Assembly: GCA_043822345.1 (NCBI GenBank)
Contig: JBDRBW010000009.1
Span: 1-58,468, forward strand
Direction: 5' to 3'
DNA from: Patescibacteria group bacterium
GTDB lineage: Bacteria > Patescibacteriota > Minisyncoccia > UBA6257 > UBA11618
DNA length: 58,468 bases
Under the pieces are notes generated by a model. The model worked only from the letters and a program-made list of their open reading frames with translations, was not told where the DNA came from and ran no database searches. Position 1 is the first letter of the stretch; each line of letters opens with the position of its first letter. Shown here piece after piece: positions 17 through 57,522 of this stretch. The position numbers and the translations under genes are program-made.

Positions 17-88
17 GTCATCTCGACTGTAATGGAGAGATCTCAATAACTACACGTTACTGAGATTTCTCGACAGGCTCGAAATGAC
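17..88. repeat. GTCAT...ATGAC palindromic element, family B
   Basis: The arms gtcatctcgac..ggagagatctca and tgagatttctcgac..cgaaatgac form an imperfect palindrome. The same arm sequences recur at 26879-26960, 40588-40617 and 47839-47928. Confidence 0.8.
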
Positions 89-5389: not shown

Positions 5390-5800
5390 TTATTTAGGCT
5401 TTTTCGCTCCGTATCTTGACCGTTTCTGTTTACGCCCTTCAACGCCGGTGGTATCCAAACGGCCGCGGACGATGTGATAGCGGACGCCCGGCAGATCTTT
5501 TACCCGGCCGCCGCGAATCATTACTATGGAGTGTTCTTGTAAGTTATGCCCTTCGCCGGGAATGTAGGCGGTTACCTCATTGCCGTTAGTCAAGCGAACT
5601 CGGGCGATTTTCCGCAAAGCCGAGTTTGGTTTTTTCGGCGTCGTTGTTTTTACCTGCAAACAAACTCCCCGCTTAAAGGGAGAGGGCGAATTGACCGGCT
5701 CGTTTTTGAGATCGTTAAAATACCGCCGCAATGCCGGCGTCTTTGGTTTGGCAGTTTTACTTTTTCTGCCCGTTTTAATTAATTGCCTGATTGTGGGCAT
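5390..5800 (-). CDS. rpsL: 30S ribosomal protein S12
   Basis: MPTIRQLIK... has the canonical S12 N-terminus. The ORF extends two codons further, to 5806. Confidence 0.97.
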
Positions 5801-5845
5801 ATTCAAGTATGCTACACAATCAAATGGCGCATGTCAAATTCAGTC

Positions 5846-6063
5846 GTCATTCTGAACGAAGTGCCCGCCTGCCAGGCCGCCATCGGCTTTGCCGAAGGCA
5901 TGCCGGCGGGCAACGCTGTAGCACTTGCGGGCAGGAAGAATCTTTACCGGTTAAATTTCTCCCGCTCTTAGCGGGACCCCGCCAAGGCGGTGGTAATTCA
6001 CCTAATAAAATTTCTAATCGCCCAAGTTCCAACCCGTCATTGCGAGTGATAGCGAAGTAATCT
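5846..6063. repeat. composite of GTCAT-type elements (family A half, cccgcc..ggcggg module, gtcattgcgag..gaagtaatct unit)
   Basis: gtcattctgaacgaagtg at 5846, aagaatcttt near 5936, gtcattgcgagtgatagcgaagtaatct at 6036-6063. Lies upstream of rpsL. Confidence 0.7.
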
Positions 6064-6085
6064 TAACAATTTTTAATTTTCAAAA

Positions 6086-6121
6086 TGTCCAGCATATCCA
6101 CGATCGTGGATATGCTGGACA
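6086..6121. repeat. palindrome family F, copy 1 (variant)
   Basis: tgtccagcatatccacgatcgtggatatgctggaca is a perfect palindrome. It is closely related to the 38-bp copies at 50099, 50913 and 58402. Confidence 0.85.
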
Positions 6122-7655: not shown

Positions 7656-7806
7656 AATAGATGGCGCAGTAATTGTTCCGAGAAAGACGGCTCGGCTCGC
7701 TCCAGCGGCGAGCCGTCCTTGATCTCAGCGAGTTTTCCTCGCTACGCTCGGAACCAAGCAAACTCGCTTCCGATACACTTTTCGGAACAACTCTGCGCCA
7801 TCTATT
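7656..7806. repeat. hairpin element family C, copy 1
   Basis: Outer inverted repeat aatagatggcgcag / ctgcgccatctatt. The inner conserved block accaagcaaactcgc.tccga.aca is shared with 40625-40777. Confidence 0.7.
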
Positions 7807-23377: not shown

Positions 23378-23387
23378 GTAAATAAAT

Positions 23388-23412
23388 AAACGGTCGCCTA
23401 AGGCGACCGTTT
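23388..23412. terminator. AAACGG..CCGTTT hairpin (shared family)
   Basis: aaacggtcgcc-taa-ggcgaccgttt. Essentially the same hairpin occurs at 38601 and 57466. Confidence 0.65.
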
Positions 23413-23434
23413 ATTTATTTGGCTAAAATGCGTT

Positions 23435-26878: not shown

Positions 26879-26960
26879 GTCATCCCGAGCGAGGCGTAGC
26901 CGAGTCGAGGGATCTCATCGATGAGATTTCTCCACTCGCTTTCAGCTCAGTCGAAATGAC
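26879..26960. repeat. family B palindromic element in the groES-groEL spacer
   Basis: gtcatcccgagcgagg...gagggatctcatcgatgagatttctcc...gtcgaaatgac. Confidence 0.8.
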
Positions 26961-32974: not shown

Positions 32975-34887
32975 TTGTAATTTTTTACATCTTTAACGCC
33001 GATCGCAGGATAAAGCGCTTCTAATGATTGCTGTCGCTCTTTTAATCTTCTTTGCGCTTCTACGGAGTTATTTTCTATCCATTCCTTGGGGAAAAATTTT
33101 TCTAAAGCACAGCCACCCCATTTGCATTTTGACGAATGCAATAGCCACTCCCGAAATCGTTTGGCGATTTCTTCGATCGTTGCCCGAGAATAAGTTTCGT
33201 TATCGGCGCGCATTTTTTTGAGGGCATCAATCATCTTGACTAAATCTTTTTGAAAGCTCTCGTTGCTGTCTTTTATCTCTTTTAAGCAGGATAATCGCGC
33301 CCTAGTGTTGGCATCGAGCGTTGATCTAAGCGCCTGATCGGTAAATGACCAGTTAACAATTATTTTGTCAATAATAACGGCCTGAGCGCCAATATTTTTG
33401 GCGGTTAAGCCAACAATTTTGGAAGAGTCAAGTTGGTCAAGTTTAATGTTGGCACTGTCAAGAATAAGATTGGTGGCTTGGCTATTGGTAGGCGGCGGCG
33501 TAGCGCTAAAACCAAAATGGTTAGTTTGAACGGAGCCGTCGCTCATAATAAAAGTGAGGCCAACAAGGGCGCCGGACATAGTTTTATTAAAATTAAGGAT
33601 GAGGTTGTAACTTTTACCGGGATTGAGGGTAAAGTTGGAAACATTAAGCGCCTCGCCTGACCGACCGAAACCAACCCACTCCATCCCCAAATTACCGCTG
33701 TAAATAAGAATTTGATTAATATTAACATTCAATCCTAAGGACTGGTTAAAGACCTGTATAACGCTCGTGTTTTCTTTAAATTGCTCTTCTAATAATCCAA
33801 TCATTGCGTCTAGCTTAGCCAAATCTTCAACAGTTGGTCCAACGCTATCGGGCGGTTCTTGGGGCAGCGGCACCTGGGCCACCGCCGGTAGATTATCAAT
33901 TGCGCAAGGATCATCATCTTGATTAGTGGGTGGTTTCGGCTGTGGTTTGAAAGCGAGACATTGTTTTTTGGCGTCAGCTGTTATAGTAACCGTGCAATTA
34001 AGAAGCGGTTTACCGCCATTATATTGTTTTTCATATGCCTCCCGTACCGGCTCAAAGATATTTTTCGGCGGACCAGAGTTAATAATACTTTCCGCAGAAA
34101 TATTAACAGGTTTTCCATTGACAGTTATTGCAAACTCATCATCGCTCATCCTCTTGATGTTAGTAATCTTCAGTTCGCACTTTTCCGGTGGCGGCTGGGG
34201 CTTGGGCTCGGTTGCCGGCGGTGGTGTTATTTTGCACTGTTGAAATCGCTGAAAATCTTTAATTCTTTGGGCAGCCGCTTGAAGTTCGTTGTTATAGTAT
34301 GTCCGTTCCCCATCAGTCATATAAGCGTCCCATATGCTATTAATAAGCGGTTTGGTATTTTTCAGATACCCTTCAAATTGGCGAAGGGCATTCTGAATTT
34401 TCTGGGACTGAGATACCGAATAGCGAACAACTTGATCGATATATTGTTTGTCGGCCGCGGTAAACTCACCGGTCGTAGTTCTTGTTTGAATCACTCCCAA
34501 ATTTTCTATTGCCCCCGGCTTATCACCTTGACCAACAAGATCGCTTTGTAACTGTTTGAGTGTGCTGATTATATTTTGCTGGTGCTGGATAATATTTGAT
34601 CTGATTGCCCTCTCTTTACCCGCGCCAATACCTCTGGCTTGGTTTATTTTTTGCCGCTGCTCTTGTATTTTTTGATTTAGGTCTCTTATGCCAACATTAG
34701 TTTCGTTAACGCCTTTTTTAAGGCGATTAACGATGTCGTCTATAGTTACGGTACATCCCCCTTGTTGGGCAAAAACAAAACCCGACATTGACCAAATTAA
34801 TACCAACAAAACCAATACTGCGATAAGTATTGACAAAATTATTATTTTATGATATAATTGCATTGGAAGATTAAATTTACCCGTCAT
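32956..34887 (-). CDS. membrane-anchored coiled-coil/Pro-rich protein with C-terminal Cys motifs
   Basis: TM helix, coiled coil, PPPATEPKPQPPPEKC, and a C-terminal CKWGGC ... CPICK. Overlaps the next gene by 19 nt. Confidence 0.6.
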   Translation of the reverse strand: MTGKFNLPMQLYHKIIILSILIAVLVLLVLIWSMSGFVFAQQGGCTVTIDDIVNRLKKGVNETNVGIRDLNQKIQEQRQKINQARGIGAGKERAIRSNIIQHQQNIISTLKQLQSDLVGQGDKPGAIENLGVIQTRTTTGEFTAADKQYIDQVVRYSVSQSQKIQNALRQFEGYLKNTKPLINSIWDAYMTDGERTYYNNELQAAAQRIKDFQRFQQCKITPPPATEPKPQPPPEKCELKITNIKRMSDDEFAITVNGKPVNISAESIINSGPPKNIFEPVREAYEKQYNGGKPLLNCTVTITADAKKQCLAFKPQPKPPTNQDDDPCAIDNLPAVAQVPLPQEPPDSVGPTVEDLAKLDAMIGLLEEQFKENTSVIQVFNQSLGLNVNINQILIYSGNLGMEWVGFGRSGEALNVSNFTLNPGKSYNLILNFNKTMSGALVGLTFIMSDGSVQTNHFGFSATPPPTNSQATNLILDSANIKLDQLDSSKIVGLTAKNIGAQAVIIDKIIVNWSFTDQALRSTLDANTRARLSCLKEIKDSNESFQKDLVKMIDALKKMRADNETYSRATIEEIAKRFREWLLHSSKCKWGGCALEKFFPKEWIENNSVEAQRRLKERQQSLEALYPAIGVKDVKNYKCPICK

Positions 34888-34977
34888 CCTGAACGAAGTG
34901 AAGGATCTTTAAAAGATTCTTCCTGCCCGCAATCGCTACGCCCAAGCGTTGCAGGCGGGCGCAGAGCTCAGAATGAC
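34883..34977. repeat. family A palindromic element with nested ctgcccgc..gcgggc module
   Basis: gtcatcctgaacgaagtgaaggatct-ttaaa-agattcttc[ctgcccgc...gcaggcgggc]..ctcagaatgac. Confidence 0.8.
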
Positions 34978-34995
34978 CTAATTGAAAAGGACGAA

Positions 34996-35118
34996 ATGAT
35001 GAAAAACTTTTTGATTACCGCGCTGATTTTCGGAGCAGGAACAGTTATGGGAGCAGGAATCTGTTATGTCGCGCAGTACGTTTACGCTATCGCGACCATG
35101 GATCTCGGTCCCTTCTAA
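34996..35118 (+). CDS. hypothetical 40-aa hydrophobic peptide
   Basis: MMKNFLITALIFGAGTVMGAGICYVAQYVYAIATMDLGPF after AAAAGGA. A terminator follows. Confidence 0.45.
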   Translation: MMKNFLITALIFGAGTVMGAGICYVAQYVYAIATMDLGPF

Positions 35119-36471: not shown

Positions 36472-36506
36472 AAACGGCTCAATTTGGATTGAGCCGTTTA
36501 TTTTTT
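36472..36506. terminator. AAACGG..CCGTTT hairpin plus T run
   Basis: aaacggctcaa-tttgga-ttgagccgttt, then attttttt. Overlaps the lepA stop. Confidence 0.65.
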
Positions 36507-38381
36507 GAGCAATTCCTTAAAAATAGAGGTGGGGATTTGGACTTGAGATTTTTCGGCGCGTTCTTGAAGTTTAGCTTTTCCTTTTTGTTGTTTTTTCCAA
36601 AGTTTCATCTTGCGGGTGCGGTCGCCGCCGTAAAGATAGCCGGTAACGTCTTTTTTAAACGCCGAGATGGTCTCGCGGGCAATAATCTTGCCACCCACCG
36701 CCGCCTGAATAGCTTGGACGAACTGCTGGCGCGGCAATAATTCTTTTAACTTTTCCACAGTTTGCCGCGCCTCTCTTTCCAGTTTTTCCTTGGGAACAAT
36801 TCTGGTCAGCCCCGGCACCAGATGGCCGGCGATTAAAATCTCCAACTTTTCCAGATTACTTTTTTCATAACCAATTAGCTTATAACTTAAAGAAGCATAG
36901 CCCTCGGACAAGGATTTTAATTTATCATCAAAATCGCTGATGAGGTCGGCTAGAGGCAGTTTGGCAGTCACTAAAACCAGCTTTTCACCAATATTTTCCG
37001 TCTCAAAACCGCTTAAACGAAACCATTTCTTCAAAGACATCACACCGCCCAAATACTGCGGCGGCGCTACAATCTCCAACTCCACAACCGGCTCCTCCGC
37101 TTCGTCATACTCCGCCGGAAAATCTTTCGGACTATTAATGGGTTTACGACACCCATTAATGGAAATTTGGTAGGTGACGGAGGGGAAGCTGTGAATGGTG
37201 GCGATTTTGAACTCTTTTTGCAAACGCTCGGCGGTAATTTCAAAATGCAATTGTCCCAAAAAACCGCACTTAAACCCTTTGCCCAACAGCTCGCTTTTAT
37301 CTTGCTCAAAAAATAGTGATGAATCGGTAAGCTTTAGTTTTTCTAAAGCATTTTTTAAATCGCTATACTCACTACTATCTTCAGGATAAAAAGAAACAAA
37401 CACCACCGGCTGGGACTCAGCATAGCCCGGCAATACCAGCTTATCAAAATTTGAAATTTGAAATTTAAAATTTGAAATTATCGTATCTCCTATTTTAACT
37501 GGGCCAATATCCTTAATGCCAGTAGCGATGTAGCCAATTTCACCGGCGTTTAATTCTTTGGAAGATTTTAATTGGGGATGAAAATAGCCAACTTCTTTTA
37601 TTTTGGCGCTAGTTTTAGTTGCTAAAAATTGTATTTGATTTCCATTATTAAACCCACCATTAAAAATCCGCACAAAAGCAATCACCCCTCTATGGTCATC
37701 ATAAAGAGAGTCGAAGATAAGGGCGCGAGACACTCCGTCAGATCCTTCACTATGTTCTGGATGACGTGGTGAAGGGACTTTCTTAATAACTTCTTCCAAC
37801 AACTCCTCCACTCCTTCGCCAGTTTTGCCGGAAATTTTTAAAATCTCCTCCGGTTCAACTTTTAGAAGATCGGCGAGGGATTGGACAACCTCCTCCAGAT
37901 CGGGTGGATTGAGATCTATTTTACTAACAGCGCCAATAATGGTCAGGCCGGCTTTTTTGGCGGCATTAAAATTAGCCAGGGTTTGCGCCTGAATTCCTTG
38001 AGTAACATCTACCAGTAAAATCGCTCCCTCAACCGCCGCCAACGCCCGTGAGACCTCGTAAGAGAAATCAGAATGGCCGGGGGTGTCTATTAGATTTAGA
38101 ATGTATAGGCCATTGTCATTCTGAGTTCCGGCTTTAGCCGTGAACGAAGAATCTTTTACAGATCCTTCACTGTGTTCAGGATGACTAAAAGTGTAGTTCA
38201 TCCGCACTGGCGCCATTTTAATGGTAATCCCCCGCTCGCGTTCCGATTCCAGCCGATCCAAATACTGCGGCTTCATCTGCCGCTTTTCTATCGTGCCGGT
38301 AATCTCCAGCATCCGATCAGCCAGAGTTGATTTACCGTGATCAACATGGCTGATAATAACAAAGTTTCTGATATTGTTCAT
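36498..38381 (-). CDS. lepA: translation elongation factor 4 (LepA) carrying two repeat-derived in-frame insertions
   Basis: MNNIRNFVIISHVDHGKST, DTPGH. The ORF opens at TTG 38393, but the ATG at 38381 matches the canonical N-terminus. Confidence 0.95.
   Translation of the reverse strand: MNNIRNFVIISHVDHGKSTLADRMLEITGTIEKRQMKPQYLDRLESERERGITIKMAPVRMNYTFSHPEHSEGSVKDSSFTAKAGTQNDNGLYILNLIDTPGHSDFSYEVSRALAAVEGAILLVDVTQGIQAQTLANFNAAKKAGLTIIGAVSKIDLNPPDLEEVVQSLADLLKVEPEEILKISGKTGEGVEELLEEVIKKVPSPRHPEHSEGSDGVSRALIFDSLYDDHRGVIAFVRIFNGGFNNGNQIQFLATKTSAKIKEVGYFHPQLKSSKELNAGEIGYIATGIKDIGPVKIGDTIISNFKFQISNFDKLVLPGYAESQPVVFVSFYPEDSSEYSDLKNALEKLKLTDSSLFFEQDKSELLGKGFKCGFLGQLHFEITAERLQKEFKIATIHSFPSVTYQISINGCRKPINSPKDFPAEYDEAEEPVVELEIVAPPQYLGGVMSLKKWFRLSGFETENIGEKLVLVTAKLPLADLISDFDDKLKSLSEGYASLSYKLIGYEKSNLEKLEILIAGHLVPGLTRIVPKEKLEREARQTVEKLKELLPRQQFVQAIQAAVGGKIIARETISAFKKDVTGYLYGGDRTRKMKLWKKQQKGKAKLQERAEKSQVQIPTSIFKELLKK
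37740..37765. repeat. family A half element inside lepA
   Basis: agatccttcactatgttctggatgac encodes RHPEHSEGS. Confidence 0.75.
38115..38185. repeat. family A full element inside lepA
   Basis: gtcattctgag...gaagaatctttt-aca-gatccttcactgtgttcaggatgac encodes HPEHSEGSVKDSSFTAKAGTQND. Confidence 0.8.
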
Positions 38382-38492: not shown

Positions 38493-38600
38493 GTGAATGC
38501 CAAACGTAGTGGGTATATTTATCGCGGAGTTATTGTTTGGTTGTCTGCAGCTTTTTTAATAATTGGCATAATTGTCGCCGCAATTCTGAGTGCTCATTGA
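38493..38600 (+). CDS. hypothetical 35-aa membrane peptide
   Basis: GTG 5 nt after AAGGGGG: MNAKRSGYIYRGVIVWLSAAFLIIGIIVAAILSAH. A terminator follows. An alternative 20-aa frame starts at ATG 38497. Confidence 0.4.
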   Translation: MNAKRSGYIYRGVIVWLSAAFLIIGIIVAAILSAH

Positions 38601-38628
38601 AAACGGTCGCCTAAGGCGACCGTTTTTT
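38601..38628. terminator. AAACGG..CCGTTT hairpin plus T run
   Basis: aaacggtcgcc-taa-ggcgaccgtttttt, between convergent genes. Confidence 0.7.
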
Positions 38629-39154
38629 ATTCCAAAATCCCATCTAAATTAGTGTCGTAGAGAATTGCCTCGTTAATAAGACGATAATTTAATAGTTCTT
38701 CATCTTTAAACCAAAGCCCAATCTCTTTTTTGGCGTTTTTGGACTCATCAGAAGCATGAATAATATTACGCACTGCCCGACTATCCCGATCGGCCATTTG
38801 ATAAGAATCAATGGTAAAATCACCACGAATGGTGCCGACGTCTGAATTTAACGGCTCGGTTTTTCCCACTAGCTTGCGAACAATACCAACAGCATGGGCG
38901 CCCTGCCAAGCCATCGCCACCACCGGTCCGGAAGACATAAATTTTTTTAGATTTTCTAGTACTTCTTTACCGGTTCTGCCCAACCATTCCGGATCAACGG
39001 TATAATGTTTTTCAATAAAATCCGGCGTGGGAATAATCATCTTCATACCCACTAATTTAAGCCCGCTTCTTTCAAAGCGGCTAATAATTTCGCCGATTAA
39101 ACCGCGTTGGATGCCATCGGGTTTTATAAGCACTAATGTTTGTTCGTTTTGCAT
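38627..39154 (-). CDS. ndk: nucleoside diphosphate kinase
   Basis: LVLIKPDGIQRGLIGEIISRFE, GTIRGDF, NIIHASD. The ATG at 39154 is preferred; the ORF-track GTG at 39169 lies inside a repeat. Confidence 0.9.
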   Translation of the reverse strand: MQNEQTLVLIKPDGIQRGLIGEIISRFERSGLKLVGMKMIIPTPDFIEKHYTVDPEWLGRTGKEVLENLKKFMSSGPVVAMAWQGAHAVGIVRKLVGKTEPLNSDVGTIRGDFTIDSYQMADRDSRAVRNIIHASDESKNAKKEIGLWFKDEELLNYRLINEAILYDTNLDGILE

Positions 39155-39155
39155 A

Positions 39156-40568
39156 TTAAGATTCTTCACTTCGTTCAGAATGACGGATTGAAAGACCTAA
39201 TTCGTCTAATTGTTCTTTACTCGCTTCGCTGGGGGCATCCATCATTAAATCACGGGCGTCGCCAGTTTTAGGAAAGGCGATGACTTCGCGAATATTGGGC
39301 TCGTCATTAAGAATAGCAACTAGCCGGTCAATACCGGCGGCAATCCCGCCATGAGGCGGAGCGCCAAAACCCAACGCCGCCAGCATATGACCAAAATTAG
39401 ATTTTATTTGGTCGTTTTTAACGCCAATTATTTGCAACACTTTTTTGAGTACTTTGGGATTGTGGCTACGAATACTGCCACCGGCCACCTCCTGTCCATT
39501 AAGCACTAAGTCGTACTGGTTGGTGATAATCTTGCCAATATTTTTCTCCTCCATTAACCATTGCTCATGTTCTTTAAGAGGCGCGGAGAAAGGATTGTGG
39601 GTAAATGTCCATTTGTCTTCTTTTGTTTTTTCGAAAAATGGGAAATTGGTTACCCAAGCGAAAGCCAACTCATCTTTGTCGTCTTTATTTTTGCGCAAGT
39701 CCGGCGAGTCGGTTTTGTATTTTTTTATTACATCAGCGTACTTCAGGCGAGGAAACGGCTTTTTGGTAAGTTTTTTGTGGGGAAAAAGTTTTTCCACCAT
39801 TTCAATAAACAAGCCCTCAATAACACCCATTACATCTTCTTTCTCCACAAATGACATTTCTAAGTCCAATTGAGTAAATTCCGGCTGGCGGTCGCCGCGA
39901 GTGTCTTCATCGCGAAAGCAACGGGCTATTTGAAAATACTTCTCCAACCCCGCCACCATCAATAATTGCTTATATTGCTGAGGAGCTTGAGGCAAGGCGT
40001 AGAACTTGCCGGGGTAGATACGGGAAGGCACAAGAAAATCACGGGCGCCCTCAGGGGTGGATTTGGAAATAATTGGTGTTTCTATTTCTATAAACTCCTG
40101 ATCGCTTAAATAATCCCTGATGAGTTTATTAATGGCATGGCGGCTACGCATATTTTTTTGCATCCGAGGACGGCGTAAATCAAGATAACGATACCGCAAG
40201 CGGCTTTCCTCGCCAATTTCCCTGCCGTCGGTATCAACAGCAATAGGCGGCGTTTCTGCTTTGTTTAACACCTCCAGATTTTCTACCAACACCTCCCATT
40301 TACCTGATTTAAGTTCAGTATTGATTAAATCCTTGGGACGTTTGTTGACTTTGCCGGTAATTTTAACCACCCATTCGGACCGTAATTCATCGGCCTGGCT
40401 AAATAACACTTTTTCTTTAGCGGTAAAAACACACTGCGCCAATCCGCTTTTATCCCTCAAATCTATAAAAATTATCTTGCCGTGGTCACGCCGAGCGCCC
40501 ACCCAGCCCATCAATATAACTTTTTTGCCCTCTTGTTTGCCGATGTCGGCAGTAAGTGTTCTTTGCAT
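39156..40568 (-). CDS. aspS: aspartate--tRNA ligase, bacterial type without GAD insertion
   Basis: QSPQ-like QAPQQYKQLLMV, FRDEDTRGDRQPEFTQLD (motif 2), GGIAAGIDR (motif 3). 470 aa. Confidence 0.93.
   Translation of the reverse strand: MQRTLTADIGKQEGKKVILMGWVGARRDHGKIIFIDLRDKSGLAQCVFTAKEKVLFSQADELRSEWVVKITGKVNKRPKDLINTELKSGKWEVLVENLEVLNKAETPPIAVDTDGREIGEESRLRYRYLDLRRPRMQKNMRSRHAINKLIRDYLSDQEFIEIETPIISKSTPEGARDFLVPSRIYPGKFYALPQAPQQYKQLLMVAGLEKYFQIARCFRDEDTRGDRQPEFTQLDLEMSFVEKEDVMGVIEGLFIEMVEKLFPHKKLTKKPFPRLKYADVIKKYKTDSPDLRKNKDDKDELAFAWVTNFPFFEKTKEDKWTFTHNPFSAPLKEHEQWLMEEKNIGKIITNQYDLVLNGQEVAGGSIRSHNPKVLKKVLQIIGVKNDQIKSNFGHMLAALGFGAPPHGGIAAGIDRLVAILNDEPNIREVIAFPKTGDARDLMMDAPSEASKEQLDELGLSIRHSERSEES
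39158..39184. repeat. family A half element forming the aspS 3' end
   Basis: aagattcttcacttcgttcagaatgac encodes RHSERSEES plus the stop. Confidence 0.75.
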
Positions 40569-40624: not shown

Positions 40625-40777
40625 CGAAGCGGCTCCGAAGTGGCCTTCAGAAACCGCGGTCCGATTTTTCCAGCGAAAATCGGCCGCTTGGCTCTCGGCG
40701 AGTTTCCTTCGGCAAGCTCAGGACCAAGCAAACTCGCCTCCGAGACATTTCTTCAGACCACATTCGGAGCCACTTCG
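40625..40777. repeat. hairpin element family C, copy 2
   Basis: Outer inverted repeat cgaagcggctccgaagtgg / ccacattcggagccacttcg. The inner conserved block is shared with 7656-7806. Confidence 0.7.
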
Positions 40778-40780
40778 TTC

Positions 40781-42088
40781 TTACTTCGTATTTTCCATAA
40801 TCCCGCCACCAAGCATCTCTTTCCCTTTGGTGTCATAAAACACCGCCGACTGGCCAATGGCGATGGCTTTTTGCGGTTTATCAAACTTAATAATGCAATT
40901 TACGACACGCCGTGTCGCAAATTGCAGAGTGGCTTTTTGAAGCAGTTGGCAGTAGCGGATACGGGCTAGCACGGAGATTTCAAACACGTCGTCATTCTGA
41001 GCCATAGGCGAAGAATCTTTGTTGGATCCTTCGGACTCCGTCTTCAGGATGACTGAAGAAAATAAATTTACTTCGGTTAATTTAATTTCAGATTTATAAA
41101 GAGCGGGGTGGTTGTCGCCTTCAGCGATGGTTATTGTATTTTTTTTAATATCTTTCGCGACAACATAAAACGGCTTTCTATTCGTCCCCGTAATTCTTAA
41201 TTCGTAATTCTTAATTCGTAAGTGCCGTTGCCCAATCGTATAAAACCACGCTCCATTATGTTCCCCCACTTTATTGTGAGCGATATCCAATATCGCTCCT
41301 TTTTTTTCGGGAATATATTGCTTGAGAAAATCCACCAGACCGACTTTGCCTAAAAAACAAATCCCCTGCGAGTCCTTTTTTTCGGCGGTTAATAAACCGT
41401 GTTTTTTAGCAATTTTCCTCACTTCCGCTTTGGTATAGTCCCCTATTGGAAACAAGCAGTGTTTTAGCTGATCTTGCGTTAATTTCCATAAAAAATAGGA
41501 TTGGTCTTTATTCTTATCCTTAGCAATTTGTAGCGACAAGTATTGATCACAAAAGCGAGCGGTTTCGGATGTGGACTTGTAGCCATCTCGAGCCTGTCGC
41601 CCGCCCGCCTCGCTATGCAAGGCATTGCGGGCAGGAGAGATCTCATCAACTTGGACGCACTGAGATCCTTCGACTTCGCCCTTCGGGCTTCGCTCAGGAT
41701 GACGGTAGAGTTTTACATAGTGCCCAGTCGCCACAAAATCAGCGCCCAACACCAGCGCCTTTTCCAAAAACAAACCGAATTTAATTTCAGAATTGCACAT
41801 CACGTCAGGATTGGGCGTAATTCCTTTTTTGTAGCCCGCCACCATATACTTGACCACCTTATCTTTATATTCCTGCTCTAAATCAAAAACATAAAAAGGA
41901 ATCTCTAGTTTTTCCGCCACACGGCGGGCGTCATCGGCATCTTTTGCGCCACAACCATCAACGTTGTAGCACTTGATATGACAACCAATAACCTCGTGGC
42001 CATCTTTTTTCAACAACAAAGCCGCCACCGAGCTATCCACTCCGCCACTCAACATTACAAATACCTTGTTAAATTTCAGATTTGACAT
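40781..42088 (-). CDS. mnmA: tRNA 2-thiouridine(34) synthase MnmA carrying two repeat-derived in-frame insertions
   Basis: PP-loop SGGVDSS, NKDQSYFL, KKDSQGICF. 435 aa. Confidence 0.93.
   Translation of the reverse strand: MSNLKFNKVFVMLSGGVDSSVAALLLKKDGHEVIGCHIKCYNVDGCGAKDADDARRVAEKLEIPFYVFDLEQEYKDKVVKYMVAGYKKGITPNPDVMCNSEIKFGLFLEKALVLGADFVATGHYVKLYRHPERSPKGEVEGSQCVQVDEISPARNALHSEAGGRQARDGYKSTSETARFCDQYLSLQIAKDKNKDQSYFLWKLTQDQLKHCLFPIGDYTKAEVRKIAKKHGLLTAEKKDSQGICFLGKVGLVDFLKQYIPEKKGAILDIAHNKVGEHNGAWFYTIGQRHLRIKNYELRITGTNRKPFYVVAKDIKKNTITIAEGDNHPALYKSEIKLTEVNLFSSVILKTESEGSNKDSSPMAQNDDVFEISVLARIRYCQLLQKATLQFATRRVVNCIIKFDKPQKAIAIGQSAVFYDTKGKEMLGGGIMENTK
40991..41053. repeat. family A full element inside mnmA
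   Basis: gtcattctgag...gaagaatcttt/ggatccttcg...cttcaggatgac encodes VILKTESEGSNKDSSPMAQND. Confidence 0.8.
41582..41703. repeat. composite B/A element inside mnmA
   Basis: gccatctcgag..[cgcccgcc...gcgggcagg]..gagagatctcatc...tgagatccttcg...gctcaggatgac. Open through 122 nt. Confidence 0.8.
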
Positions 42089-43047: not shown

Positions 43048-44664
43048 TTATTTGTCTTTTTTGAGCGCGCCTTCAAGCGCACTACGGAGGGCGGCTATAT
43101 CAACGGATTGTTTTGGTGGTCTAGGAGTTTGAGGTCTAAGATTGGGTTTTTCAGGATGACGAGGGGGGGGCGTTGATAAGATTTCTCCACTACGGTCGAA
43201 ATGACTATGCGGTGGGCGGGGTGGAGACGGACGACGGAAAGATCCTTCACTTCGTCGAGTCAGACTCGACTGCGGTTCAGGATGACGCTGAGGATAATCA
43301 GAATGACGCGGAGTAAGAACCTCACGAAGAGGTTTTTCTTCGCGACGGGCGGCGCGATCGGTGGAAGTTTTTTCCGAGGTGGAAAGCCACTCTCGGGCGA
43401 TTTTTTCCTCCACCGTACTCTTGGGAATAGCATAACGACTGCGAGTGTTTTCTATAATGACATCAATAAAGTTTTCTGCCGATGGAGTGGGAGGCGCCAA
43501 GGTCTTGGCGGCAAAAGGACGAGAAGCCAAGCCATCAATCATTAACTTTATATAAATATGGTATTTTGCCAGATTAACTAGGTCGTTGATATCATACTCG
43601 GGATTAAACTCCTTTTCCACAAACTCGGCGTCTTTGGCGCCGATGCGAAAAATAGCCATCGTCCCCACGTTGCCAAAAATAGCCGAACGAACAGCGTAAG
43701 ATCCCTCATGATCCAACTGGTCTAAATACTGGTTGGCAAGAATGAGCGATAGCCGATATTTACGCGCCTCGGATAAAACATTCACAAAGGACTCGGTGGC
43801 GAAGTTCTGAAATTCATCAACGTATAAGTAAAAGTCACGGCGCTCCTCTTCGGGGACATTAACCCGCGACATCGCCGCTAATTGCAGTTTGGTAATAATC
43901 ATCGCTCCCAACAAAGCCGAATTATCCTCGCCAACTTTTCCCTTGGACAAATTAGCAATCAAAATCTTTCCCTCATCCATAATCTTGCGCATATCAATAG
44001 TAGAGTGCGCCTGCCCCAAGATGTTGCGAATGAGCGGATTGGAAATAAACTGGCCAACTTTATTTTGAATGGCGGCGGTCGCCTCGCTCTCAAAACGTTG
44101 ACTATACTTAGCAAACTCATCCACCCAAAAACTCTTAACCACCGGATCCTTTAAATTACTAACAATCTCTTTACGATACTCGGGATTATTAAGCATCCGC
44201 TGAATGCCCAGTAGAGTCGTCCCCGGATACTCCAACAATGCCAAAAGGGCGTTATTAAGAATATATTGCATGCGCGCCGACCAGGCGTCAGCCCAGATTT
44301 TTTTGAACACTCCCATCATACTGGAAGCCACCAAATGCCGAAAATCGGGACTCACCTCTTCTAATGGATTAAAAGAAATAGGAAATTCAGTATCGGAAGG
44401 GTCAATATAAATTACATCGTCCAGCCGCTCCTCGGGAATAAAGTTAAGAATGGTCTCGGCTGAACCGCCGTGAGGATCCAAAAACGCCACGCCATAACCG
44501 GCCTTAATATCATCAATAATCATATTCTCCAACAGAGTGCTTTTACCGACACCGGTTTTTCCTAAGACATAAACGTGGCGGCGACGGTCGTCATCCTTAA
44601 TACCAAAGCGGCGCGACTCGCCGCGGAAAACCGTCTCGCCTATAGTTGTGATGTGTTCCTTCAT
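43048..44664 (-). CDS. VirD4/TraD-like (DUF87-type) P-loop ATPase, soluble, with repeat-derived C-terminal tail
   Basis: Walker A GKTGVGKST, FLDPHG, Walker B LYVDEFQNF, LILANQYLDQL. No N-terminal TM. Confidence 0.75.
   Translation of the reverse strand: MKEHITTIGETVFRGESRRFGIKDDDRRRHVYVLGKTGVGKSTLLENMIIDDIKAGYGVAFLDPHGGSAETILNFIPEERLDDVIYIDPSDTEFPISFNPLEEVSPDFRHLVASSMMGVFKKIWADAWSARMQYILNNALLALLEYPGTTLLGIQRMLNNPEYRKEIVSNLKDPVVKSFWVDEFAKYSQRFESEATAAIQNKVGQFISNPLIRNILGQAHSTIDMRKIMDEGKILIANLSKGKVGEDNSALLGAMIITKLQLAAMSRVNVPEEERRDFYLYVDEFQNFATESFVNVLSEARKYRLSLILANQYLDQLDHEGSYAVRSAIFGNVGTMAIFRIGAKDAEFVEKEFNPEYDINDLVNLAKYHIYIKLMIDGLASRPFAAKTLAPPTPSAENFIDVIIENTRSRYAIPKSTVEEKIAREWLSTSEKTSTDRAARREEKPLREVLTPRHSDYPQRHPEPQSSLTRRSEGSFRRPSPPRPPHSHFDRSGEILSTPPPRHPEKPNLRPQTPRPPKQSVDIAALRSALEGALKKDK
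43150..43307. repeat. cluster of family A/B half elements inside the ATPase 3' end
   Basis: ttcaggatgac, agatttctccac..gtcgaaatgac, aagatccttcacttcgtcgag, ggttcaggatgac and tcagaatgac in tandem. Confidence 0.75.
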
Positions 44665-47838: not shown

Positions 47839-47928
47839 GTCATTTCGACCAAAGTGGAGAAATCTCATCATTCTTGCGAACTCAAAGCACTGAGATCTCT
47901 CGACTCGCTATCGCTCGCTCGAGATGAC
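47839..47928. repeat. family B full element spanning the secD stop and the secD-secF spacer
   Basis: gtcatttcgaccaaagtggagaaatctca...tgagatctctcgactcgc...cgagatgac. Confidence 0.8.
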
Positions 47929-49208
47929 GGTCGGTTGTCATTAATAAACACTCGCAACAACAGCCGACTAACCGTGATGGCGCTGAACATACTGATAATG
48001 ACACCGATTAATAAAGCGAGAGCAAATCCCTTCACAAAGCCAGTGGTAAAATAATACAAAATAATAGAGGTAATAATAGTAGTCATATTGGAGTCACGGA
48101 TTGATGGCCAGGCGCGCTTGAAACCTTCTTCAATAGCAGTGGTTCTGGACAACCCGTTCCTTATCTCCTCCTTAGCCCGCTCAAAAATAAGAATGTTAGC
48201 GTCAATCGCCATACCAATAGTGAGAATAAATCCGGCGATACCGGCCAAGGTCATAGTAACGCCAAACAACTTAAAGATACCAAGAGTTAAAATAATATAA
48301 ATTACCAGCGCCAAACCAGACACTAAACCGAAGGTAAGATAGTAAACGAGCATAAAGGAAAGCAAAACCGAAGTGCCAATCAAGCCAGCCCAAATGGTCT
48401 TTTCCAGAGAATCCGCGCCCAGCGAGGCGCCAATGGTCTGCTGATTGATGAGGGTGATGGGCGCCGGTAAAGCGCCGGCGTTAAATCGCTCCACTAATTG
48501 TTGCGCTTCCTCAATGGTAAAGTCGCCAGTAATCTGCGCCTTACCGCCAATAATCGCCTCCTGCACCACCGGCGCGGTAATCAAATTACCATCAAGAAAA
48601 ACCGCCAACTGCTTGCCAACATTGCGAGTGGTAATATCGGCGAATAGCCCCGCGCCATCGCTATTGAAACTTAAGCTAATCTGGGGTTGGTTGGTAACGC
48701 TATCAAAGGTCAACTGCGCCCCCTCGACATAGCGGCCACTTAAATTAGTAGCAACGAATGATTGCGTCTCGCCTTCTCCCTGAACCTCGGAAAAATAAAG
48801 TAGCGGCGTCAGGCCAATCTGTTCAATAGCCGCCTTGATATCTTTAATGCCGGCCAGTTCAACCACCAAACGAGTGGATTGGCCACTCTCGGCAACATAA
48901 ACTTGCGGCTCGCTAACGCCAAATAAATTGACCCGTTTTTCAATCACGTCCCGCAAGCCATTGAGTACCGATTCCTTGTCGGTGGCGCTAACCTGCGACA
49001 AATCAACTTCATAAACCAAGTGGCTGCCGCCAGTTAAGTCCAACCCCAGCCGCCACGGCTGAAACTGATAGGTTGTGTCAAACCATTGGGGGTTGATAAA
49101 ATAACCCGCCACCGCAGTCGCCACCACGACAATGATTATAAAAAATACCGCTTTGGTTCTCATAAATTCATTCTCACGCGCCACCTCGTCATTCCGCCTG
49201 CCCGCCAT
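47868..49208 (-). CDS. secD: protein translocase subunit SecD
   Basis: LGLDLTGG, a periplasmic domain and six TM segments. The ATG at 49163 (MRTKAVFF) is a plausible true start, because the first 15 codons lie in a repeat. Confidence 0.9.
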   Translation of the reverse strand: MAGRRNDEVARENEFMRTKAVFFIIIVVVATAVAGYFINPQWFDTTYQFQPWRLGLDLTGGSHLVYEVDLSQVSATDKESVLNGLRDVIEKRVNLFGVSEPQVYVAESGQSTRLVVELAGIKDIKAAIEQIGLTPLLYFSEVQGEGETQSFVATNLSGRYVEGAQLTFDSVTNQPQISLSFNSDGAGLFADITTRNVGKQLAVFLDGNLITAPVVQEAIIGGKAQITGDFTIEEAQQLVERFNAGALPAPITLINQQTIGASLGADSLEKTIWAGLIGTSVLLSFMLVYYLTFGLVSGLALVIYIILTLGIFKLFGVTMTLAGIAGFILTIGMAIDANILIFERAKEEIRNGLSRTTAIEEGFKRAWPSIRDSNMTTIITSIILYYFTTGFVKGFALALLIGVIISMFSAITVSRLLLRVFINDNRPSSRASDSESRDLSALSSQE

Positions 49209-49255
49209 AGCTTTAGCAACGGCGGGAGCGAGCGTAGCGAGTCGAGGAATCTTTT
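49188..49255. repeat. family A-like element with ctgcccgcc..ggcggga module
   Basis: gtcattccg[cctgcccgcc...ggcgggag]...gtcgaggaatctttt. Confidence 0.7.
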
Positions 49256-54048: not shown

Positions 54049-54106
54049 GTCATTTTGAACGAATGTGAAAAATCTTTTAAAGATCCTTCGCTACGCTCAG
54101 GATGAC
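54049..54106. repeat. family A full element
   Basis: gtcattttgaacgaatgtgaaaaatctttt-aa-agatccttcgctacgctcaggatgac. Confidence 0.8.
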
Positions 54107-56889: not shown

Positions 56890-56949
56890 GTCATTCTGAA
56901 CAAAGTGAAGAATCTTTATAAAAGATCCTTCGCTAACGCTCAGGATGAC
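56890..56949. repeat. family A full element in the grpE-dnaK spacer
   Basis: gtcattctgaacaaagtgaagaatcttt-ataa-aagatccttcgctaacgctcaggatgac. Confidence 0.8.
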
Positions 56950-57419: not shown

Positions 57420-57465
57420 AAATATGCTTATTATTATAAATTAATTAAAAAAATGTGTCAAATTT

Positions 57466-57490
57466 AAACGGTCGCCTCAGGCGACCGTTT
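57466..57490. terminator. AAACGG..CCGTTT hairpin (shared family)
   Basis: aaacggtcgcc-tca-ggcgaccgttt. Confidence 0.65.
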
Positions 57491-57522
57491 ATTTCTAGCC
57501 TCCAGTATCTAGCTTCCAGCTT

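Follow-up and report, generated by a model that had tools for sequence, protein, structure and literature searches.

To our knowledge, the in-frame colonisation of essential genes by hairpin-forming repeats has been documented mainly in Rickettsia and in a few Proteobacteria and Verrucomicrobia. Here we describe comparable repeats in a stretch of 58,468 nt from a Patescibacteria group bacterium (GenBank assembly GCA_043822345.1, contig JBDRBW010000009.1; the whole stretch is referred to as the window), two copies of which lie inside lepA, the gene encoding elongation factor 4 (EF4). Very probably, these two stretches of lepA derive from an interspersed non-coding repeat that forms hairpins, is of the kind known from repetitive extragenic palindromic (REP) sequences, CGTC-tagged REPs and Rickettsia palindromic elements (RPEs), and is carried in frame as a passenger. 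The RPEs and the window family have in common that they are small palindromes located between genes and also in frame inside housekeeping genes, that they often form dimers adding 20-30 residues, sometimes twice per gene, that the element encodes no transposase and that the host genomes are reduced.

RPE-4 and RPE-6 have been classed as CGTC-tagged REPs, with a CGTC head and a stem beginning with AT (Di Nocera et al. 2013, PMC3733652). This group, which also includes dRS3 of Neisseria, is without a dedicated transposase (PMC3733652). Further related systems are the NTS/SRM hairpins, which are recognised by the GIY-YIG single-strand DNA nuclease Ssn and of which only 2% lie inside genes in Neisseria (Chenal et al. 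2025, PMC11893778), and the REP/BIME (bacterial interspersed mosaic element) and REPIN sequences of Proteobacteria, which are moved by REP-associated tyrosine transposases (RAYTs).

The lepA gene of the window is an intact open reading frame (ORF) of 627 codons (for coordinates of all features see Table 1). Its product comprises the complete EF4 domain set (Pfam GTP_EFTU, GTP_EFTU_D2, EFG_III, EFG_C and LepA_C) with intact catalytic motifs, matches EF4 structures of the PDB with an E value of 3e-149 and has its nearest homologues in Patescibacteria of the class Paceibacteria, near 'Harrisonbacteria'. A peculiarity of the protein is the G4 motif, which reads SKID instead of NKID (37923-37934, residues 153-156); among 120 LepA homologues the first position of this motif is S in four and T in 13. 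An earlier inspection of the letters alone, here called the sequence-only reading, had described a full repeat element (38115-38185) and a half element (37740-37765) lying in frame within lepA. This observation was confirmed, since the DNA at both places is as described and the frame remains open through both copies; only the end of the full element had been set one base short, its true span of 72 nt corresponding to exactly 24 codons. Moreover, the "full family A element" is a real repeat, but not its basic unit: the latter is one hairpin about 26 nt long, two different versions of which are joined in inverted orientation to form the full element. At site 1 the translation reads ...RMNYTF-SHPEHSEGSVKDSSFTAKAGTQND-NGLYILNLIDTPGH, and at site 2 ...VPSP-RHPEHSEGSD-GVSRALIFDS. 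Insert 1 has kept an intact hairpin structure and folds as a single strand as well as the intergenic copies do (z of -3.4 and -4.0 against shuffled sequences). Insert 2 is presumably an older, decaying copy, because one of its stem pairs is broken (ATCCA versus AGGAT) and its partner unit has been lost.

Site 1 lies at the beta2-beta3 hairpin tip and precedes the DTPGH motif by about 10 codons. Insert 1 is missing from the most similar LepA orthologues (about 70% identity over the aligned columns), which possess a loop of only 2-6 residues at this position (...VRMQY-KG-YIMNLIDTPGH); in homologue P0023 the site reads YTFNSQLY, so that the window copy differs by exactly 24 codons. At site 2, relatives carry a native loop of 6-12 residues, which is absent in the window, where the repeat unit stands in its stead. 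The short loop after VPSP was thus replaced and not merely lengthened, as had been proposed. Compared with EF4 of Thermus (PDB 5imq), the window protein is about 22 residues longer at site 1 and five residues longer at site 2. For the structural assignment an AlphaFold2 model of the window LepA was built on 64 homologues (mean predicted local distance difference test, pLDDT, 84; predicted template modelling score, pTM, 0.79). Insert 1 appears in the model as coil (residues 65-91) at the hairpin tip between strands 57-64 and 92-99, and with pLDDT values below 50 for residues 70-88 it is predicted to be disordered. Insert 2 is likewise modelled as coil (residues 202-217), placed after the last helix of the G domain (191-201) and before the strand that opens domain II (218-228). 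In the model both inserts are loops between secondary-structure elements, in agreement with the surface position expected by the sequence-only reading. Tryptic peptides expected from the inserts are MNYTFSHPEHSEGSVK, DSSFTAK and AGTQNDNGLYILNLIDTPGHSDFSYEVSR.

The repeat character of the inserted DNA is evident from its distribution within the window. The core AGATCCTTCACTGTGTTCAGGATGAC (26 nt, up to three mismatches allowed) occurs four times, at 34883, 37740, 38160 and 56890, and not once in 100 dinucleotide-preserving shuffles. Over 47 nt the DNA of the lepA insert is 87% identical to the intergenic stretch 34883-34929, which bears out the assertion that the same element resides in intergenic spacers. 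The head motif GTCAT-YYY-RA was found at 27 sites, compared with about 1.8 expected from base odds, and a looser scan yielded about 25 true units. About 12 of 27 units in these 58 kb, which have a G+C content of 43% and are about 87% coding, are predicted to be translated. In 556 kb of DNA surrounding lepA in 80 related genomes the head motif occurs at chance level (24 seen, 17 expected); within this sample of DNA, expansion of the family is thus seen in the window and not around the lepA genes of relatives.

All units follow the plan GTC-AT-NNN-GA...GA-N'N'N'-AT-CT with a conserved tandem G·A step inside the stem and a tail of CTT or CTC. Minimal units have nine stem positions, including the two G·A mismatches, and a loop of 3-5 nt; in many units the loop is enlarged by nested hairpins of 10-70 nt. 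The stem triplets are of seven complementary types (CCT/AGG, TCT/AGA, CTC/GAG, TTC/GAA, CCC/GGG, TTT/AAA and TCC/GGA), and this covariation argues for a hairpin formed within the unit. In the 26 scored units, one of which is a chance match, GTC is preceded by C (11), T (6), A (6) or G (3), i.e., C is preferred, not fixed. A second, GC-rich hairpin module (CCTGCCCGC...GCGGGCAGG) was observed nested in unit loops at 5864-5935, 34926-34964, about 41600-41640 and 49196-49215, which indicates that the elements are modular.

Eight dimers were found in the window, and relatives contributed another three. In 11 of 12 inverted pairs (the eight window dimers, those of lineages L065, L081 and L082 and a composite in mnmA) one unit begins with ATC and the other with ATT, the exception being the mnmA composite (about 41555-41704). 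In the remaining pairs the two units are consequently never identical, and the long hairpin between them invariably combines a C·A mismatch with a G·T pair. Since TGA interrupts one of the three frames of a unit (G TCA TCC TGA), two frames remain usable, and all in-frame copies are read in one of these two, either xGT CAT YCT GAA (H-P/S-E...S-E-G/E-S) or GTC ATC CTG (VIL). Inspection of the flanks of the eight window dimers revealed no target-site duplication; with terminal inverted repeats and no flanking direct duplication the elements differ from miniature inverted-repeat transposable elements. An Rfam scan of the window returned three tRNAs and no family for the hairpin elements, and a phage collection contained no match.

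Comparison with the published systems allows a more precise placement of the family. The sequence-only reading had likened it to the Rickettsia palindromic elements, and this likeness holds for the in-frame insertion into conserved genes, the surface positions and the existence of orthologues without the insert. It may be more than an analogy, as both appear to share a CGTC-type head followed by a stem starting with AT. Differences are the occurrence in Patescibacteria, the G·A step, the nested-hairpin loops and the tail CT(T/C) in place of CCA, the likeness being drawn from published descriptions of the Rickettsia elements. The intragenic CGTC and GTAG REPs of Rickettsia conorii and Opitutus terrae match the window family in their behaviour. 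Of the features given for CGTC-tagged REPs (Di Nocera et al. 2013), the first stem pairs A-T and T-A are present in every window unit (GTC-AT-NNN...N'N'N'-AT), and the predominance of inverted dimers is shared (eight in the window and 79 of at least 120 metagenome loci). The terminal CGTC, which is TGTC or CCTC in many copies of the published group, is represented by GTC in all window units and by CGTC in 11 of 26. A loop of 4-5 nt and a CCA tail are lacking; minimal window loops have 3-5 nt, many are nested, and the tail is CTT or CTC. With NTS/SRM (Chenal et al. 2025, PMC11893778) the family shares the HGTC head and hairpin, the high copy number per genome and the directional units, in contrast to the proportion of copies inside genes, which is far smaller in Neisseria. 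Like REP/BIME and REPIN sequences, with the Y and Z REPs of BIMEs, it forms inverted pairs of two slightly different hairpins, lies mostly at gene ends and has the doublet as its common form; unlike them it carries (C)GTC instead of the GTAG tag, and in-frame copies are far commoner. By its G·A step, modular loops, CT(T/C) tail and failure to match the SRM pattern, the window family is different from the published ones. In the literature searched we found no description of such elements in Patescibacteria.

The element is not confined to one lineage. We surveyed the 120 closest LepA homologues for inserts, defined as six or more extra residues, and detected them at site 1 in 34 and at site 2 in 14 proteins, with only four at any other internal position. 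The inserted peptides belong to several unrelated repeat kinds. The same hairpin family was identified in the two loops of four other Patescibacteria lineages: at site 1 of L081 (protein P0090), with a unit order opposite to that of the window, and at site 2 of L082 (protein P0009; read in the other frame, VILSDSEGS...QND), of L065 (same frame as in the window) and of P0113. When the insert columns are left out, the LepA tree requires the element to have been gained independently in each of the five carriers; five sisters of P0009 with 88-91% identity are all without it. At the level of sequence comparison, the element is thus independent of its host gene and has inserted repeatedly into lepA and other genes.

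The site-2 loops of the P0009 sisters were considered as possible remnants of the element (VILSD vs IVISD, QND vs QNP) and rejected, as the alignment revealed no similarity at the DNA level. In L204 (protein P0013), a close relative of P0009, the 'native' short loop of site 2 is itself a 27-nt palindrome (ATATAGTGA..TCACTATAT) unrelated to the hairpin family, and the loop seems to turn over via different small palindromes. Homologues P0021, P0028 and P0068 contain at site 1 a complete PD-(D/E)XK domain (PF13366, about 150 aa) in frame, flanked by palindromic 'SAQISADNNADQRG ... DQRKSAQI' repeat peptides; this insert looks like a nuclease cassette that leaves the host protein uninterrupted. The LepA loops at the two sites can accommodate as many as about 150 additional residues.

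When metagenomes were searched for the dimer centre, at least 120 loci were obtained. Among the matches listed, 79 contain a full dimer, with 83 dimers in all, of which nine are spanned by ORFs. In six of these nine ORFs the dimer is flanked on either side by Pfam domains; they encode a UDP-GlcNAc 2-epimerase, two glycosyltransferases, a DNA alkylation repair protein, a Sua5+TrmB protein and a FemAB protein.

We propose that copies of the repeat arose at many places of the genome, mostly between genes, and that a genic copy would survive only if it adds whole codons in a stop-free frame to a tolerant loop. Loops of this sort in LepA would be the beta2-beta3 tip immediately ahead of DTPGH and the stretch linking the G domain to domain II. 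Translation would turn the added residues into flexible surface loops without a function of their own, and the inserts would be neutral passengers kept by a selective filter. As spreading agent, a trans-acting enzyme which recognises the folded single strand appears most likely, and the best candidate, by analogy with the NTS/SRM system (PMC11893778), would be a small Ssn-type GIY-YIG nuclease. The metagenome contig L135 carries seven dimers in 10 kb and a 96-aa single-domain GIY-YIG gene (ORF 5797-6087, PF01541, E 1.9e-16) with family units on both sides. This resembles the NTS-ssnA-NTS layout, in which units bracket an ssn gene encoding a single-domain GIY-YIG protein of about 94 aa (PMC11893778). 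RAYT or IS200/IS605 genes did not turn up beside the copies examined, the flanks not having been screened for Y1 transposases.

Several points weigh against the passenger explanation. Translation of the inserts is deduced from the intact frame and the conserved catalytic motifs, and none of the RNA runs searched for the lepA insert stretch holds it. An empty site in a near-identical strain was not seen in the run variants, all of which are more distant relatives. Candidates for empty alleles had to be rejected: an alternative path in sequencing run X2, whose ends show that it stems from a less closely related organism in which the loop has eight residues (RMLYKFEIPDSG..LNLIDTPGHS), and other joints in the reads, which belong to community relatives with 22 nt replacing 103. 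The suggested link to an Ssn-type enzyme comes from one metagenome contig, and a motif scan detected no GIY-YIG gene in the window. The published SRM pattern HGTCWYN(0-2)YYVSBRHN(0-5)WNVSBRGN(0-2)RNCYNB has no match on either window strand, as neither the G·A step nor the AT-rich stem is compatible with it. Finally, the restriction to two loops of LepA could reflect targeting at the DNA level rather than selection alone.

The latter leads to the strongest competing explanation, a targeted landing pad: the elements or their nucleases would recognise DNA adjoining the highly conserved GTPase motifs, and the inserts would spread between lineages by homing-like gene conversion instead of random insertion and subsequent selection. 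In favour of such a pad, several unrelated kinds of insert, including the complete in-frame PD-(D/E)XK ORF, occupy exactly these two sites of LepA, site 1 is situated between two very conserved DNA stretches able to support recombination, and the elements of L065 and L082 share their terminal codon, which immediately precedes ISR(A/G)L. We nevertheless regard it as rather unlikely, since junction positions and preceding bases vary between lineages, the same family occupies many unrelated genes and spacers without a common flank, and additional residues are most simply tolerated by selection in a short disordered loop. An elaborated form deserves only a small share of belief as well; here both loops would be actively targeted in Patescibacteria by several unrelated hairpin families and the PD-(D/E)XK ORF in a homing-like process directed by structure, the DNA of the GTPase motifs would serve as target or recombination arms, and the units would be recognition sites of a small GIY-YIG nuclease specific for single strands. 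If this were true, an essential gene would act as a shared site for exchangeable cassettes.

A functional extension, in which the peptides or the mRNA hairpin have been recruited, e.g., for EF4-ribosome binding, lepA expression or mRNA decay, is improbable. The fully intact hairpin of insert 1 and the retention of long site 1 inserts in many Patescibacteria would fit such a role; on the other hand, the peptides at these sites are unrelated between lineages, close relatives manage without inserts, insert 2 is decaying and insert 1 is predicted to be disordered.

With regard to the assembly, contigs from other sequencing runs were compared with the window. In run X1, which may be the source sample, a 710-nt contig (37639-38348) crosses the inserts with zero differences; a 247-nt contig of run X2 (38004-38250) is likewise identical, and a contig of run X4 from another study (38150-38366), also without differences, spans one junction. 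The locus is thus no chimera, which the sequence-only reading had named as a possible refutation. Although repeats commonly cause mis-assembly in metagenomes and loop length at both sites varies among all LepA proteins, a mis-assembled repeat or an ancestral loop merely resembling one is hardly credible in view of these contigs, the exactly kept reading frame, a DNA identity to intergenic copies far beyond chance and the orthologues without the insert.

Taking the inserts as in-frame passengers, RPE-like behaviour is extended to a further phylum, represented here by an ultra-small groundwater bacterium, and to a repeat family that is itself new, and the share of units read in frame in the window indicates that in-frame repeats are frequent in Patescibacteria. 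The family connects Rickettsia RPEs, CGTC-type REPs and Ssn-type hairpins with a new G·A-stem variant. Because the published SRM pattern misses it, the Ssn/hairpin system probably extends further than has been estimated. Its interest lies chiefly in its commonness, its recurrence and the two hot spots in LepA. For annotation it is relevant that such repeats extend proteins, rewrite C-termini and create false ORFs.

Table 1. Positions of lepA, its two inserts and further members of the hairpin repeat family in the window.
Feature	Position	Strand	Basis or remark
lepA (EF4) coding sequence	36498-38381	minus	627 aa, intact ORF
Insert 1 in lepA, double-hairpin dimer, 72 nt (24 codons), SHPEHSEGSVKDSSFTAKAGTQND	38115-38186	minus	sequence, fold, model, orthologues
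Insert 1, C-unit	38160-38185	minus	
Insert 1, spacer	38155-38159	minus	
Insert 1, T-unit	38115-38154	minus	contains a nested small hairpin
Insert 2 in lepA, decayed single C-unit CGTCATCCAGAACATAGTGAAGGATCT, read RHPEHSEGS	37740-37766	minus	linker between G domain and domain II
Single T-unit, last 8 codons of aspS (RHSERSEES)	39159-39184	minus	scan and ORF; stop directly after
63-nt dimer in frame in mnmA, VILKTESEGSNKDSSPMAQND	40991-41053	minus	alignment gap against MnmA structure 9hlv
Composite of about 150 nt in frame in mnmA, RHPERSPKGEVEGS..., about 50 aa	41555-41704	minus	two units, nested GC-rich hairpins
Three or four units, some decayed, C-terminal tail of TraD/VirD4-like ATPase	43144-43308	minus	scan and ORF
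Dimer at the 3' end of secD	47839-47928	unassigned	last ~20 secD codons (47868-47928) run into the dimer
Intergenic dimer	34883-34977		closest paralogue of insert 1
Intergenic dimer	54049-54106		
Intergenic dimer	56890-56949		
Intergenic dimer, CCC/TTC subtype	26879-26960		groES-groEL spacer
Dimer, CTC/TTC subtype	17-88		

Further genic copies of the window illustrate these effects. The aspS gene of the syntenic relative L082 ends with ...LGLEIKKSPKKK (KKSPKKK) before the stop codon, compared with ...LGLSIRHSERSEES in the window, and both inserts in mnmA coincide with gaps against MnmA structures. Two ORFs of 86-89 aa on the plus strand, 5791-6060 and 34858-35118, cross repeats (..FSRHSERSA.., ..FTRHPERSEGSLKDSS..) and are probably false genes derived from stop-free repeat frames.

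Two other repeats were noticed in the window. A terminator-like hairpin (AAACGGTCGCC-TAAG-GCGACCGTTT) is present in three copies which are 90-97% alike (23387-23416, 38600-38629 and 57465-57494), one of them between ndk and lepA. A separate 58-nt repeat (TCTCGGCGAGTTT..GCAAACTCGCCTCCGAGAC) occurs in two copies with 81% likeness (7723-7780 and 40693-40750), one of which adjoins a unit of the hairpin family between aspS and mnmA.

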